Notes: generated by a model from the sequence alone, not told the origin. DNA of 64,000 nucleotides from Alphaproteobacteria bacterium (GCA_028868695.1 JAGWTZ010000012.1:1046-65045); one strand, 5' to 3'. Shown: positions 4,431 to 31,650, counted from the stretch's first letter. Translations and numbers: made by a program.

Positions 4431-5123
4431 GTGGGTGATACGGTCATCGGCGTCGATGGCTGCCGCGCGGGCTGGATTGCCGCCATCTGGCAGGGTAGCC
4501 AGATCCACACCAAGCTATTTCCGCAATTTGCGGAGATCCTGAATCAGGAAGCCGAGGTCATCGCCGTGGATATTCCCATGGGCCTGCCCAATGCCCACGG
4601 GCGGCAGGCGGAACAGTTGGCCCGCAAGGCGCTGAAGGGGCGGGCTTCCAGCATCTTTGCCGTGCCATCGCGCGCCGCTGCCGCAGCCATGGACTATCCG
4701 TCTGCTTGCGCGATCAACCTCCGTCATTCCCATCCGCCCCGCAAACTGTCGAAGCAGGTGTTCCACCTTTTTCCAAAAATCCGCGAGGTTGATGCGGCCT
4801 TGACGCCTGCCTTGCAATCACGCGTTTTTGAAACCCATCCTGAATTGGCCTTTAGTGTGATGAATGGCGGCATTGCCTTGCGCCACAGCAAGAAGACGCA
4901 AGAGGGCGCGCACGAACGCCTTGCTCTTCTGGCGCAGCAGGGCCTGCCACCACTTCATCACTCATCCTTTGATTATTTGCGCAATGATGTGCAGCGCGAT
5001 GATGTGATAGACGCCTCTGCCGCGGCCTGGAGTGCGCGGCGTATTTTTGAAGGCAAAGCCCTGCATTACCCGGAAAGCCAAGAGCGGGACGCGCTGGGTC
5101 TCCTCATGCGCATCCACGCGTAA
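4431..5123 (+). CDS. DUF429 family protein (predicted RNase H-fold nuclease)
   Basis: IGVDGCRAGW, AVDIPMGLP, FETHPEL and DDVIDA motifs. Confidence 0.8.
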   Translation: MGDTVIGVDGCRAGWIAAIWQGSQIHTKLFPQFAEILNQEAEVIAVDIPMGLPNAHGRQAEQLARKALKGRASSIFAVPSRAAAAAMDYPSACAINLRHSHPPRKLSKQVFHLFPKIREVDAALTPALQSRVFETHPELAFSVMNGGIALRHSKKTQEGAHERLALLAQQGLPPLHHSSFDYLRNDVQRDDVIDASAAAWSARRIFEGKALHYPESQERDALGLLMRIHA

Positions 5124-27239: not shown

Positions 27240-27965
27240 TCAGGCCATGTATTGGCCGCCATTGGCCGAGAGGGTGGAGCCGGTGATGAAGCCGGCATCA
27301 TCGGCGGCGAGGAAGGCCACGCAACGCGCAATCTCTTCGGGCTCGCCCACGCGGCCCACCGGGATCAGCGGCAGAATGCGCTCATTCATCACCTTCTCGG
27401 GCACGGCCTTGACCATGTCGGTGCCGATATAGCCGGGGCAGATGGCATTGACGGTGATGCCCTTGGCGGCACCCTCCTGGGCCAGCGACTTGACGAAGCC
27501 GATCTCGCCGGCCTTGGCGGCGGCGTAGTTCGCCTGGCCCATCTGGCCCTTCTGGCCATTGATCGAGGAGATGCAGATGATGCGGCCGAAGCCGCGGTCA
27601 CGCATGCCGCCCCAGACCGGGCTGGTCATGTTGAACAGCGAATTGAGGTTGGTGTTCAGGACTTCCTGCCATTGCTGCAGCGTCATCTTGTGGAACATGG
27701 CATCGCGGGTGATGCCAGCATTGTTGACGAGGATGTCCACGGCGCCAAGCTCGGCCTCGATGGCCTTCAGCGTGGCGGCGCAGGTTTCAGCGCTGGTGAC
27801 ATCGCATTTGTAGACGTTGATGCCCGTCTCGGCCTTGAAGGCGGCGGCCGCGGCATCATTGCCCGCATAGATGGCGGCCACCTTGCAGCCCTGGGCTTTC
27901 AGCGCCTTGGAAATGGCGGCGCCAATTCCTCTTGATCCTCCGGTGACAACGGCTACGCGGCTCAT
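27240..27965 (-). CDS. phaB: Acetoacetyl-CoA reductase (PHB synthesis)
   Basis: TGGSRGIG, NNAGITRD and NGQKGQMGQANYAAAK motifs. Confidence 0.96.
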   Translation of the reverse strand: MSRVAVVTGGSRGIGAAISKALKAQGCKVAAIYAGNDAAAAAFKAETGINVYKCDVTSAETCAATLKAIEAELGAVDILVNNAGITRDAMFHKMTLQQWQEVLNTNLNSLFNMTSPVWGGMRDRGFGRIICISSINGQKGQMGQANYAAAKAGEIGFVKSLAQEGAAKGITVNAICPGYIGTDMVKAVPEKVMNERILPLIPVGRVGEPEEIARCVAFLAADDAGFITGSTLSANGGQYMA

Positions 27966-28134
27966 GGTGGTCCTCCTCTTTTTTGGTGATCATGCCGCAG
28001 GGATGGGACGGCGGCAACTGGATTGATGCGGAGGGGAATGGCGCAGCTTCAGCTTCGGAGGTTCTATGCCGTTCTGCGCCGTCCGGCCCCGCCATCTTTT
28101 ACCGTCATTCCACCAAAGCACCGCACCCACAGAC

Positions 28135-28259
28135 CGTCATTCCGGCCGCGATTGCAAGGCAATCGTGGCGAAGTCTGCGAGCCGGAATCCCGCTTGGGCT
28201 GGGTGCGGAAGGTGCAGAGCCTGCGGCCTAGCTGGGCCCCTGCCTTCGCAGGGGTGACG
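28135..28259. repeat. Paired CGTC-tagged REP-like palindromes
   Basis: CGTCATTCCGGC...GCCGGAATCC (28135-28190) and an inverted CGTCACCCCTGCGAAGGCAGGGG ending at 28259. Confidence 0.8.
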
Positions 28260-28336
28260 GAGGTGGGTGAGTTGGATTTGGTCATGGTTGTTCCCTTGGT
28301 TGCCCCGTGGCGTGCGGGGCAGAGGAAAGAAGGGAG

Positions 28337-28700
28337 ACGCGTGGGATAATCCGACGCGGGTGCCACTGTGTTTTAAGTGGCCAGAAGTGCGTTGGGTTGC
28401 CCCACGCGCCGGCAGGAATTGAGCATCAGGTGAACTGTCAGTCCGCCCCTATGGGTCTGGGGTGGTGAAGCCCATTCTGGGCTTTGCCACCCGAGGTGAT
28501 CCATCTCACTTCCTACTCGGAGGAAGCCTGATGGGAGACACCAGAGGCCTTGCCATAGCAGCCCGGGTCTTAGTGCCCGAGGAAGTTCAACCTGGCTCCC
28601 GGTGGAGTTGGGATACGTTATCCCTTCCAGCAGGCCTGCCGCCCCCTTGCATCCGGGTTCACCGTCATGAACCGGACCCCAGTGCAAGGGAGCGGAAGGC
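28337..28700 (+). ncRNA. Candidate large structured ncRNA of unknown family
   Basis: At least 10 helices, long-range pairings 28410-16/28635-41 and 28424-30/28527-33, crossing pairing 28431-36/28584-89; most G-U wobbles favour the + strand. Confidence 0.55.
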
Positions 28701-28755
28701 AGCTAGCACATCCTAGGAATAAAAGCAAGTTAATTCTCTGCCCCCGCCCTAGTTC

Positions 28756-28800
28756 CGTCACCCCTACGAAAGCAGGGGCCCCGCTTGGGCAAGGTGCGGA
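28756..28800 (+). repeat. CGTC-tagged REP-like palindrome
   Basis: CGTCACCCCTACGAAAGCAGGGG plus a CCCGCTTGGGC..GTGCGGA tail shared with the 28135 unit. Confidence 0.75.
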
Positions 28801-28890
28801 ACTTGCTCGCGATGTTTCTTGCGCTTGTGGCGCGCCAAGGTTTAGGCACAATCATCCGCAGCTTTCACTGGATTTTGGCAGCGACATATT

Positions 28891-28926
28891 AAAAACCAAA
28901 ATGGTGGCTGGCGTTTCCAGCCACCA
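28891..28926 (-). terminator. Rho-independent terminator after the small HTH gene
   Basis: 10-bp stem TGGTGGCTGG/CCAGCCACCA, T-rich tail on minus strand, 10 nt past the stop. Confidence 0.65.
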
Positions 28927-28935
28927 CCATCTTGC

Positions 28936-29127
28936 TTAGAGCATCGGAGGATATGCGTCTTTGCTTCCTACGTGCCTCCTACCTTTGATGATTTCGCTAA
29001 TCCGGCCTGGATTAACATCAAAGAATGCAGCAATGCGGTGCTGAAATTCTCCAGCACGAAACATCGCCCAAACCTTTATTGCATCGTCAAAAGTGAGCCT
29101 GCGGCTCGGTCGTTTATCCGCAATCAT
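28936..29127 (-). CDS. Small (63 aa) helix-turn-helix-like protein; alternative start 29205
   Basis: LTFDDAIKVWAMFRAGEFQHRIAAFFDVNPGRISEIIKG has an HTH pattern; own terminator; lower GC than neighbours. Confidence 0.6.
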   Translation of the reverse strand: MIADKRPSRRLTFDDAIKVWAMFRAGEFQHRIAAFFDVNPGRISEIIKGRRHVGSKDAYPPML

Positions 29128-29489
29128 GGCGGCATTTCCTTTTGAAATGCCGTTAAGTGGCTTGACATCGTGACCGAACGGACGCAAGAAAAGCGCCGTG
29201 ATCACAAATGGCCGCCCCTTAACGGCGGTTGCTTTCCAAAGCCGATCCGCGTTAGCGCGTGGATCGGCTTATCTTTTGGCGTAATGCCAAACGACCCATC
29301 GGATTTCATTGAGTCTTAACTTCTTGTCAACCCCCATAAGCCGTTGAAATCGAGTCTTTTTAGGAGTGCCGCATAAGTATTTCCTTATGTGGCGGGCCAA
29401 ACATCTCTTCCCGTGACTCTCATCAAACTGCGCACTGTCTGCTTAGCTTTGCAATCCACCCGCCCGCCGAGAGGAATAGACCGAGCCTG

Positions 29490-29648: not shown

Positions 29649-29682
29649 AAAAAAAAGCCCGCGCCTTGCGGCGCGGGGGCTT
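29649..29682 (-). terminator. Rho-independent terminator of phaA
   Basis: CCCGCGCC-GCAA-GGCGCGGG stem-loop followed by T8 on minus strand. Confidence 0.8.
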
Positions 29683-29707
29683 GGTCTTCAACGGTTCAGC
29701 TTTGTGA

Positions 29708-30889
29708 TCAGCGTTCCAGGCACATGGCAACGCCCATGCCGCCGCCGATGCAAAGGGTGGCGAGGCCCTTCTTGGCGTTCGACCGCTTCATCTCAAACAG
29801 CAGCGTGTTGAGGATGCGCGCACCCGAGGCACCGATGGGATGGCCGATGGCGATGGCGCCGCCATTGACGTTCACCTTGGCGAGATCCCAGCCCATGTCC
29901 TTGTTCACGGCGCAGGCCTGGGCGGCGAAGGCTTCATTGGCCTCGACGAGATCAAGATCGACGGCATTCCAGCCCGCCTTCTTCAGCGCGGCGCGCGACG
30001 CGGGGATGGGGCCTGTGCCCATGACGGCGGGATCAACACCGGCCGTTGCGAAAGAGGCGATGCGGGCCAAAGGTGTGAGGCCGCGCTTTGCGGCCTCGGC
30101 AGCGCTCATCAGCAACACGACGGCGGCACCATCATTGATGCCGGAGGCGTTGGCGGCCGTCACCGTGCCTTCCTTGGAGAAGGCGGGGCGCAGCTTGGCC
30201 ACGCTGTCCATGGTCACACCCTTCTTGATGTATTCATCAGCATCCACCACCACATCGCCCTTGCGGCCCGAAATGGTGACGGCGGCAATCTCATCCTTGA
30301 ACTTGCCGGCAGCCTGCGCGGCCTCGGCCTTGTTCTGGGATTTGACGGCGAATTCATCCTGCTGTTCGCGGGTGATCTGCCATTGCTTGGCGACATTCTC
30401 GGCGGTGGTGCCCATGTGATAGCCGTTGAAGGCATCCCACAACCCGTCCTTGATCATGGTGTCGATCAGGTTCCAGTCACCCATCTTCACGCCATCGCGC
30501 AGATGCGCGGCGTGGGCGGATTTCGACATGCTCTCCTGGCCGCCGGCAATGGCAATCGCCGCATCACCCAGCGCGATCTGCTGGGCGGCGAGGGCCACGG
30601 CGCGAAGCCCCGAGCCGCAGACCTGGTTTATGCCCCAGGCCGAGGCTTCCTTGGACAGGCCGGCATTGATGGCGGCCTGGCGGGCCGGGTTCTGGCCTTG
30701 CGCGGCGGTCAAGACCTGGCCGAGGATCACTTCATCCACTTCAGCGGCCTCGACCTTCGCGCGCTCCAGCGCCGCCTTGATGGCGATAGTGCCGAGCTGG
30801 GCGCCCGTGAGGCTGGAAAGCGCGCCATTGAACGAACCCACTGGCGTTCTGGCGGCGGAAACGATGACGATGTCCTTGAGGCTGCTCAT
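29708..30889 (-). CDS. phaA: Acetyl-CoA acetyltransferase (beta-ketothiolase)
   Basis: [28 protein letters not shown] and LCIGGGMG motifs. Confidence 0.97.
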
Positions 30890-30935
30890 GCTGTTCTCCC
30901 TGTGGCGTGATGAACAAATTCTAGCGCTGTTTTGG

Positions 30936-30986
30936 GTGCGTTTGCGAGATTTTTTTGCACTTGCAAATGTGCACTGCACGGAGCAG
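30936..30986. promoter_or_regulatory. TGC/GCA-rich candidate PhaR operator between divergent phaA and phaR
   Basis: TTGCACTTGCAAATGTGCACTGCACGGAGCAG; PhaR is known to bind TGC-rich sites; not an exact consensus match. Confidence 0.35.
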
Positions 30987-31017
30987 ATTTTGGGCACGCA
31001 GTATAGGGAGTGAGACT

Positions 31018-31650
31018 GTGAGTGACGAGCAAGCCCCAAACCCGGCCGGCAAAGCCCAGGCCACGGTGATCAAGAAATATGCCAACCGCCGCCTCTACAA
31101 CACCGCCACCTCGACCTATGTGACGCTGGATGACCTGGCGCTGATGGTGAAGAACGGGCAGGACTTCCTGGTTTATGACGCAAAGAGCGGCGAAGACATC
31201 ACACGCTCGGTTCTCACCCAGATCATTTTCGAAGAGGAAAACAAGGGCGGGGCGCAGAACCTGCTGCCTGTCAATTTCCTGCGCAACCTGATCCGCTTTT
31301 ATGGCGACCAGATGCAGGGCCTGGTGCCCGGCTATCTCGACTTCTCGCTCGACAACCTGATGAAGGAGCAGGAGAAGATCCGCAAGCAGATGATGGACGC
31401 GATCGGGGTTGGCGACCAGTTCAAGGGCATGGAAGACCAGGCCAAGCGCAACATGGCGATGTTCAATGACGCCATGAAGATGTTCAACCCCTTTGCCACG
31501 ATGATGGGCGGCGGGATGCCGGGGGCTGGGCCTAAGCCGGGTGCTTCGGGCGCTGCTTCACCTTCACCTGCCGCTGCCAAGGACGACTTGCAGGCGCTGA
31601 AAGACCAATTGGCGGCGATGCAGCAGAAGCTGGACAATATCTCGCGCTAG
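31018..31650 (+). CDS. phaR: Polyhydroxyalkanoate synthesis repressor PhaR
   Basis: [23 protein letters not shown] and [15 protein letters not shown] motifs; GTG start. Confidence 0.96.

Follow-up and report, generated by a model that had tools for sequence, protein, structure and literature searches.

The window analysed here, a stretch of 64,000 nucleotides, comes from an Aestuariivirga-like alphaproteobacterium, the PhaB protein of which returned no exact match in a protein look-up and is 90% identical to that of A. litoralis. Within it, phaA (29708-31039, minus strand) and phaB (27240-27965, minus strand) are separated by a gap of 1740 bp, compared with 115 bp in A. litoralis, and this gap contains the structured element examined here. 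Also present in the gap are REP copies, an intrinsic terminator for phaA at approximately 29650-29685 (minus strand), and a small ORF that has a terminator of its own. The small ORF (28936-29205, minus strand, 63-89 aa) is HTH-like by eye and is followed by a canonical terminator at 28900-28928; searches of Pfam and NCBIfam with this ORF returned no significant match, the best being to the HigA antitoxin (E = 0.14). Pfam domains identified in the products of the window's neighbouring genes were of the SDR, thiolase, ABC and Ccm types. REP-type palindromes with the core CCGTCACCCC..GCAGGGGCC, at 28133-28275 and 28754-28805, flank the element. In metagenome runs that hold the window, the bin at 28229-28275 has a depth of ~1000 versus ~8 in unique flanks, indicating a copy number for this REP of the order of one hundred. 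The 64-kb window contains only one copy of the element, and no operator-like palindrome or promoter module was found elsewhere within it. The features of the unit are given below in minus-strand order, followed by the flanking REPs, which had been recognised already in a preliminary description of the locus.

28281-28745, minus strand: whole repeated unit, ~465 bp, from promoter to 3' motif
28723-28728, minus strand: −35-like hexamer, TTGCTT here (weak); family consensus TTGACA
28706-28722, minus strand: spacer of 17 nt, containing the palindrome TCCTAGGA
28700-28705, minus strand: −10-like box TAGCTG, placed by alignment; predicted start near 28693
28639-28695, minus strand: P1 and P1b, 5' hairpin, with stem CCGCUCCCUUGCA/UGCAAGGGGGCGG and conserved apex UCAUGACGGUGA
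28635-28641, minus strand: P2 closing helix, 5' strand CGGCAGG; partner at 28410-28416
28599-28633, minus strand: P2a (CCUG/CGGG) and P3 hairpin (GGGAU-AACGU-AUCCC); loop (A)AACGU conserved
28584-28594, minus strand: long-range helix X, 5' strand CAGGUUGAACU; partner at 28427-28436 (AGUUCACCUG); present in the minimum-energy fold
28562-28581, minus strand: P4 hairpin, CUCGGGC / loop ACUAAG / ACCCGGG; covariation
28445-28540, minus strand: four-hairpin expansion, subfamily-specific, 95 nt, including the 14-bp GGTGGTGAAGCCCA/TGGGCTTTGCCACC
28410-28416, minus strand: P2 closing helix, 3' strand CCUGCCG; covariation in 14 sequences
28337-28409, minus strand: long GC hairpin; outer 10 bp invariant, inner 10 bp with conserved A.C, apical 6 bp covarying
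28322-28336, minus strand: C/U-rich tract UCUCCCUUCUUUCCU, after the long hairpin; family form (C/U)UCCCUU
28301-28321, minus strand: small 3' hairpin, UGCCCCG / loop / CGGGGCA; covariation
28281-28300, minus strand: end motif AACCAAGGGAACAACC-AUG-ACC, an SD-like stretch and start-like codon
28240-28261, no strand assigned: flanking REP copy, outside the unit; inverted partner at 28754-28775, 91% complementary

Family alignments give a unit of ~450-500 bp, and the nhmmer family match in the window spans 28275-28806. The edges of the unit were also apparent from sequencing depth, which in runs X1 and X2 climbs from ~8 to 130-400 between ~28276 and 28745, with loose ends at 28744. A sigma-70-type promoter (TTGACA-N17-TAnnnT) is predicted to open the unit on the minus strand, with the start site placed near 28693 from the sequence. 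Of the 21 aligned copies, 18 keep the motif CTTGAC(A/U/G), followed after 17 nt by a TAnnn(G/C/U) box, and several paralogs have the palindrome TCCTA(N0-3)TAGGA within the promoter spacer. The promoter of the window copy, with its weaker −35 hexamer, was not called by a simple promoter scan. The body of the RNA comprises a 5' clamp hairpin, P1, followed by P2 (family form GGCAGG/CCUGUC), which encloses a branched core of P2a and P3, P4 (family loop ACUAMG), a tetraloop hairpin, and arms that vary by subfamily. In the computed fold the C/U-rich tract pairs with AAGGGA (28292-28297) in the end motif. The 3' end of the family reads A(A/C)CAAG(G/C)G..GAG.., then mostly AUG or GUG, then YCC, at which point similarity stops; no conserved ORF follows the end motif in the family alignments.

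Searches for related sequences recovered ~40 homologs, from Aestuariivirga and Hyphomicrobiales metagenomes and MAGs. A metagenome scan with a 19-mer from a conserved hairpin arm gave 25 loci, of which 24 were true, whereas a two-block pattern applied to genomes gave 90 matches, including 15 true copies. The latter were all from Aestuariivirga or from Hyphomicrobiales or other Alphaproteobacteria MAGs, with nine of them on separate contigs of a single MAG. BLASTN comparison of the element with plasmids and phages returned no match, and three scans of viral contigs returned nothing, or a single chance match. The absence of a recognisable RNA family, as put forward in the preliminary description, was borne out: Rfam gave no match in the window at gathering thresholds, and at E <= 10 the region 27900-29000 yielded chance matches only, at or below 24.6 bits. 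When seven homolog loci were searched at E <= 1, the sole match was the tRNA-Leu that adjoins one of them (L027). The Rfam 15 families covered by these searches, among which HEARO, group I and II introns, RNase P, tmRNA, 6S, SRP and riboswitches, all returned no hit, and no description of this RNA was found in the literature. The element therefore constitutes a new RNA family, absent from Rfam 15 and from the literature searched. The window copy belongs to a short-core subfamily, together with the copies at L007, L021, L027 and L041.

The ORFs of this stretch had been judged to be non-coding, and this assessment holds. Peptide similarity between homologs is seen in all six frames, with the frame differing from one homolog to another; indels among homologs have lengths that are not multiples of three; and the local ORFs of the flagged stretch have no Pfam match. 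A small protein-coding gene was rejected on these grounds, namely the lack of a conserved reading frame and of a Pfam match.

The predicted folding of the 364-nt stretch at 28337-28700 is exceptionally stable on either strand (−186 kcal/mol, z = −6.1, for the plus strand; −179 kcal/mol, z = −6.6, for the minus strand), with no shuffled sequence equalling it, although the z-score of the window's own body is inflated by a few perfect hairpins. Further evidence for a highly structured RNA comes from covariation in the homologs. Since RNAalifold over the whole length returned partial structures only, helices were checked module by module. In an RNA-sense alignment of 21 copies, 88% of cells in P1, P1b and P4 combined are paired, and 22 of 28 pairs have changed on both sides; 0 of 500 shuffles were as good, and sliding the partner columns reduced pairing to 36-53%. 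Taken individually, both partners have changed in 11 of the 13 pairs of helix 1 and in five of the eight of helix 2, the two helices of the P1/P1b hairpin, 87% of cells being paired in helix 1; the figures are six of seven for P4 (95% of cells paired) and all seven for the small 3' hairpin (98% of cells paired, in 29 sequences). Six pairs of P2 are kept in 14 sequences, with positions 5 and 6 alternating between G-C, G.U and A-U. Changes in the remaining modules were read from the sequences by subfamily: P3 stems take the forms GGCCGUG/CACGGCC, GAUAAAGC/GCUUUGUC and GGUGU/GCACC; P2a changes from CCUG/CGGG to UCCG/CGGA or UCUUG/CAAGG; and helix X occurs as CAGAG..GAACU/AGUUC..CUCUG (L007 and L027), CCGAC/GUCGG (L041) and CAAG..GAG/CUC..CUUG (L021). 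These helices are maintained by compensatory substitutions.

These comparisons also allowed the structure first proposed for the stretch to be assessed. The helices named in that proposal are all present where they had been located, and several correspond to family modules. The outer helix CGGCAGG/CCTGCCG is the family closing helix, P2; the terminal hairpin at 28639-28695 is P1 and the CGGGT../..GCCCG hairpin is P4, both of which are kept in homologs; and the three upstream hairpins, kept likewise, together form the one long hairpin at 28337-28409. The TGAACT/AGTTCA pairing is retained within the window's subfamily, as part of helix X, by way of the CCGAC/GUCGG and GAG/CUC replacements. However, the pseudoknot into which it had been drawn finds no support in the family, since the helix CATCAGG/CCTGATG, which would have to form at the same time, competes for CCUG (28427-28430) with the conserved CAGG/CCUG pairing. 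The multiloop of four hairpins closed by that helix fared similarly as a family feature, being missing from L007, L021, L027 and other subfamilies, whereas the region itself is found in further copies from runs that hold the window (X1, X2, X5 and X6). Within this expansion, copies from the window's own metagenome have C-G in place of T-A at the pair 28514:28521. Contigs from X1 and X2 were also observed in which 28409 is fused directly to 28555, representing paralogs that lack 145 nt of the core.

The preliminary description favoured an RNA read from the plus strand, on the basis of G.U pairs. This argument applies to the long hairpin, but elsewhere in the structure the wobble pairs fall on the minus strand, where P1, P1b and P4 contain 97 G.U versus 25 A.C oppositions and P2 contains 13 versus 0; 24 of the U.G pairs are in P4, and P1 also has many. 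The folding energy of the body is lower for the minus strand in all 21 homologs examined, by a mean of 17 kcal/mol, and for the consensus fold the figures are 62 pairs at −61.7 kcal/mol (minus strand) compared with 41 pairs at −46.5 kcal/mol (plus strand). In addition, the only promoter conserved in the family is on the minus strand, at the edge of the unit; a conserved plus-strand promoter was not present in the homolog alignments. Promoter, wobble pairs and folding energies all indicate that the core RNA is probably read from the minus strand.

That the element is transcribed was evident from metatranscriptomes. Contigs from six runs, from soil, root and freshwater, fall on the element (L008 4463-4774, L024 6047-6325 and L026 4461-4802), and depth is zero immediately to either side of it; these contigs are undirected. 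The L024 contig, in two runs of ~60 Mb, is 100% identical to the element and has a depth of 7-8. In L008 and L024 the RNA contigs begin 10-12 nt past the predicted start, whereas the L026 contig already starts 9 nt upstream of the −10 box. A single read from a paralog covers part of the small 3' hairpin and continues into the long one, indicating that the latter is not a complete stop. RNA from the element is therefore abundant in soil, root and freshwater metatranscriptomes, and RNA from its flanks is not.

The number of copies per genome was estimated in two ways. Firstly, nine contigs of MAG GFS_7532 carry the element, i.e. at least nine copies. Secondly, in X1 and X2, the best runs for the window, the flanks have a depth of 7-10 and the element a summed depth of 120-400, which is 15-50 times that of the flanks, although such ratios in a metagenome may pool the copies of several organisms. 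Single pieces of 69-84 nt with no more than one mismatch have depths of 95-185, one 84-nt piece with a single mismatch reaching 185 versus 8.8 in the flank, which suggests some 10-20 near-identical copies in addition to more diverged ones. Many contigs end inside the element, i.e. assemblies break there. Copies occupy unrelated intergenic sites, next to unrelated housekeeping genes in either orientation. Clustering of flanking ORFs from 41 loci revealed no recurrent protein outside syntenic loci, in which the recurrent proteins were housekeeping ones, and no recombinase, reverse transcriptase, nuclease, iscB/tnpB or IS200/IS605 TnpA gene was found beside copies at ~40 loci. Terminal inverted repeats joining the unit ends were absent from the five copies inspected (L014, L017, L023, L007 and L085), and the apparent inverted pair around the unit in the window corresponds to the two REP copies. 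A MITE was rejected for want of such repeats. The suggestion that the stretch is the RNA part of a protein-less, multi-copy element situated among REPs accords with the copy number, with the contigs that break inside the element and with the absence of terminal inverted repeats.

The phaA-phaB spacer itself provides a further view of how copies are distributed. A contig with a 91%-identical PhaB (L004) has a related element upstream of phaB, in the same position as in the window; its terminal hairpins are conserved, and its middle has diverged while retaining a similar length. The two sites hold different subfamilies, and the A. litoralis site is empty. In a third relative (L002, 1-583), the start of what appears by eye, from its N-terminus, to be an IS5-like transposase gene (MGRFDLSDDEWSIIEPHFPKAG) lies upstream of phaB, at which point the contig stops. 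The spacer looks like a recurrent site of insertion.

Several classes of dispersed repeat resemble the element in some respects. The ERIC/IRU, Correia/NEMIS and REPIN sequences are likewise intergenic, of high copy number, folded and sometimes promoter-bearing, and they too break assemblies. However, these repeats are 35-160 bp in length, with terminal inverted repeats or simple palindromes, in contrast to the asymmetric ~450 bp of the element, with its many distinct covarying helices and conserved loops.

Collectively, these data establish a new, conserved, expressed and structured non-coding RNA, carried on a protein-less, high-copy unit of ~450-500 bp that has its own promoter and is restricted to one lineage. 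The preferred reading of its origin and function, to which we assign a probability of roughly 45%, is that the unit derives from a larger element composed of an RNA and a gene, and that the RNA works with a protein made elsewhere. The element would then be an internally reduced derivative, in which the RNA was formerly the leader of a protein gene in the larger unit, and this would explain why the unit terminates in an SD-like motif and start codon with nothing conserved thereafter. The RNA could feasibly serve as the folded partner, either as scaffold or as guide, of a protein whose gene lies elsewhere in the genome, with copies being made at the level of DNA by means of help supplied in trans. 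No parent element with a protein gene was found, nor any pair of empty and filled sites with clean junctions.

The main rival is that the copies form a host gene family, i.e. paralogous, non-mobile, trans-acting regulatory or scaffold RNAs under a shared, repressor-controlled promoter, as in the multi-paralog sponge sRNAs. The conserved promoter, with a palindrome in its spacer, speaks for such a family, as does the high abundance of the RNA. The conservation, moreover, has the −35 box and the 3' motif as its exact limits, which is the pattern predicted if only the functional parts stay alike. The paralogs are, in addition, old relative to the divergence of strains: those of GFS_7532 differ by 7-31%, each having a closer counterpart (91-98%) in other samples, and some element loci are syntenic across strains. 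Old paralogs at syntenic loci also fit an old, stable gene family as opposed to an active mobile element. The same promoter module (−35 to −10, palindrome included) was observed at L008 4414-4447, in DNA contigs of two runs, fused to an unrelated downstream sequence with a strong SD (TCTCGCACTGAACCTGAAAGGAGGGAACCA), and the element's promoter may accordingly be shared with a protein-coding gene, judging from this arrangement. A family of static genes is, however, difficult to reconcile with element depths of 15-50 times those of the flanks and of 10-20 times for the near-identical pieces in the window's own metagenome, with the assemblies that break at the element, or with the different subfamilies at the same intergenic site. 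Motifs of the A-rich type bound by Hfq or Crc were not enriched either (19 observed versus 14 expected). On balance this explanation seems unlikely, albeit one to be taken seriously.

The large orphan bacterial RNAs OLE, GOLLD, ROOL and raiA, together with the multi-paralog sponge RNAs CsrB/RsmZ and CrcZ, are similarly long, elaborate and abundant, of unknown or protein-binding function, and combine a conserved core with variable peripheral arms and an own promoter. The element differs in having no sequence or structure match to these in Rfam, a far higher copy number, no detectable repeated GGA or A-rich binding motif, and a very narrow taxonomic range so far.

A second alternative holds that the unit is a portable, cis-acting cassette that supplies a promoter and structured leader to the downstream gene, in the present case phaB, cut off from phaA. 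The phaA gene of the window has acquired its own terminator, such that a new promoter may be needed for phaB. In ~10 independent loci the unit and the next gene run in the same direction (phaB and genes for an SH3 protein, FAH, LptB, a VOC protein, a Mo-oxidoreductase, AbrB, enolase and tRNA-Leu); the C/U-rich tract is able to pair with the SD-like motif; and an RNA read passes through the long hairpin. Nevertheless, the downstream genes have no function in common, and each starts from a site of its own a further 30-250 nt away. In ~5 loci the unit is followed by a convergent gene, the stop codon of which, in one case (L077), is ~20 nt from the end of the unit. RNA depth also falls to zero in the space that separates the unit from the gene after it. 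We regard the cassette as improbable. A riboswitch or other cis-regulatory leader was rejected for related reasons, namely the unrelated downstream genes and the convergent orientation of about a third of the loci.

It is doubtful, too, whether the plus strand is used, either alone or in addition to the minus strand, with the long hairpin functioning, for example, within a transcript of the plus strand, in single-stranded DNA or in a cDNA resembling that of a retron msd. The case for this centres on the long hairpin, which is more stable on the plus strand by 11.6 kcal/mol in 21 of 21 homologs, with high z-scores on both strands. Its inner stem, on the minus strand, has 55 A.C versus 2 G.U oppositions, the former being would-be G.U pairs on the plus strand, and a CUUCAC variant keeps its pairing on the plus strand only. 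The L026 RNA contig, moreover, overruns the −10 box. Against this, the search pattern itself dictated one arm of the hairpin, which leaves few independent events behind the strand counts, and mismatches selected in a sense RNA would arise mostly by transitions and so mimic G.U pairs on the opposite strand. In the body helices, by comparison, G.U outnumbers A.C on the minus strand by a factor of approximately four, the plus strand has no conserved promoter, and no reverse transcriptase gene is near any copy.

The preliminary description had also suggested a remnant of an IS110/IS1111-type element, in which the RNA would be a bridge or seek RNA of a non-autonomous derivative that targets REPs. 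There are evident parallels of layout. The bridge RNA of IS110 and the seekRNA of IS1111 are structured RNAs encoded in the non-coding part of multi-copy elements without terminal inverted repeats, and they stand before an SD and start codon; the SD and start codon at the end of the present unit appear as though they had once opened a gene that was since deleted. REPs serve as insertion sites for some IS110 members, and REP hairpins lie 10-25 nt from the end of the unit in many loci, although REPs are very abundant in these genomes in any case. The resemblance nonetheless is one of layout only, since the recombinase that defines these elements is absent: ~40 loci hold neither a DEDD recombinase nor any other recurrent neighbouring protein. 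The promoter, furthermore, is entirely inside the unit, and the RNA, at ~360-410 nt, has a branched core as opposed to two guide loops. Described bridge RNAs, such as that of IS621, are about half this length. A crude screen for complementarity of 7-9 nt between the element's ends, which are known to ~10 nt, and its interior found no match that recurs at homologous positions. Membership of IS110/IS1111 is consequently very improbable.

Elements of the HEARO type, i.e. IscB omega-RNA loci without an ORF (RF02033), provide another partial likeness, having a large (~300 nt) structured RNA, sharp unit boundaries and copies that number in the dozens per genome, many of them with no protein gene alongside. 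They are set apart from the present element by the lack of an Rfam match (at E <= 10 for the window and E <= 1 for homologs), by the lack of IscB, TnpB or TnpA nearby, and by a promoter that forms part of the element's conserved unit. Guides of omega-RNAs come from the flank.

A more speculative variant, which we consider a long shot, is that the element is a giant, multi-copy relative of retrons that lacks a reverse transcriptase gene, its self-promoted RNA having the 3' long hairpin copied to single-stranded DNA by an enzyme encoded elsewhere. Copying of this kind would explain why the body is constrained on the minus strand and the hairpin on the plus strand, and dozens of template RNAs would then be served by one enzyme. 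Like the msr-msd of retrons, the element gives a promoter-driven structured RNA, with a long 3' hairpin that folds better on the complementary strand, as an msd-derived cDNA would. The differences are that no reverse transcriptase gene lies downstream of the element, that its body has four to five times the length of an msr and its copies number tens per genome, and that no a1/a2 repeats closing the RNA have been established, the 5' strand being firmly paired in P1. Lastly, chance folding of GC-rich sequence, a decayed repeat or a small protein gene has a negligible probability, for while the sequence is indeed GC-rich, it is refuted by compensatory changes among the ~40 homologs, by the RNA evidence and by the frame tests.

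Large, elaborately folded bacterial RNAs without known relatives constitute a rare class, and earlier cases, among them omega-RNAs, bridge RNAs, OLE and ROOL/GOLLD, led to new biochemistry. The element described here presents an unusual combination of a complex structure backed by covariation, very high expression, and tens of protein-less, promoter-bearing copies per genome. If the RNA does partner a protein made elsewhere, it may be the sign of an RNA-guided or RNA-scaffolded system that has so far gone unrecognised; if it is instead a host regulator, both its size and its amplification are unusual for such an RNA. In either event it offers a defined experimental target in an understudied soil and freshwater clade.

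Two individual copies show additional peculiarities. The L075 paralog has an insertion of ~57 nt (1475-1532) within the 3' strand of P1, indicating either that the RNA tolerates insertions in P1 or that this copy is dead. At the SH3-protein locus (L008, ~4890-5000), the terminal GUG opens a frame of 34 codons, the UGA of which overlaps the AUG of the next gene (AUGA); this arrangement, read by eye and seen at this locus alone, is probably a coincidence.
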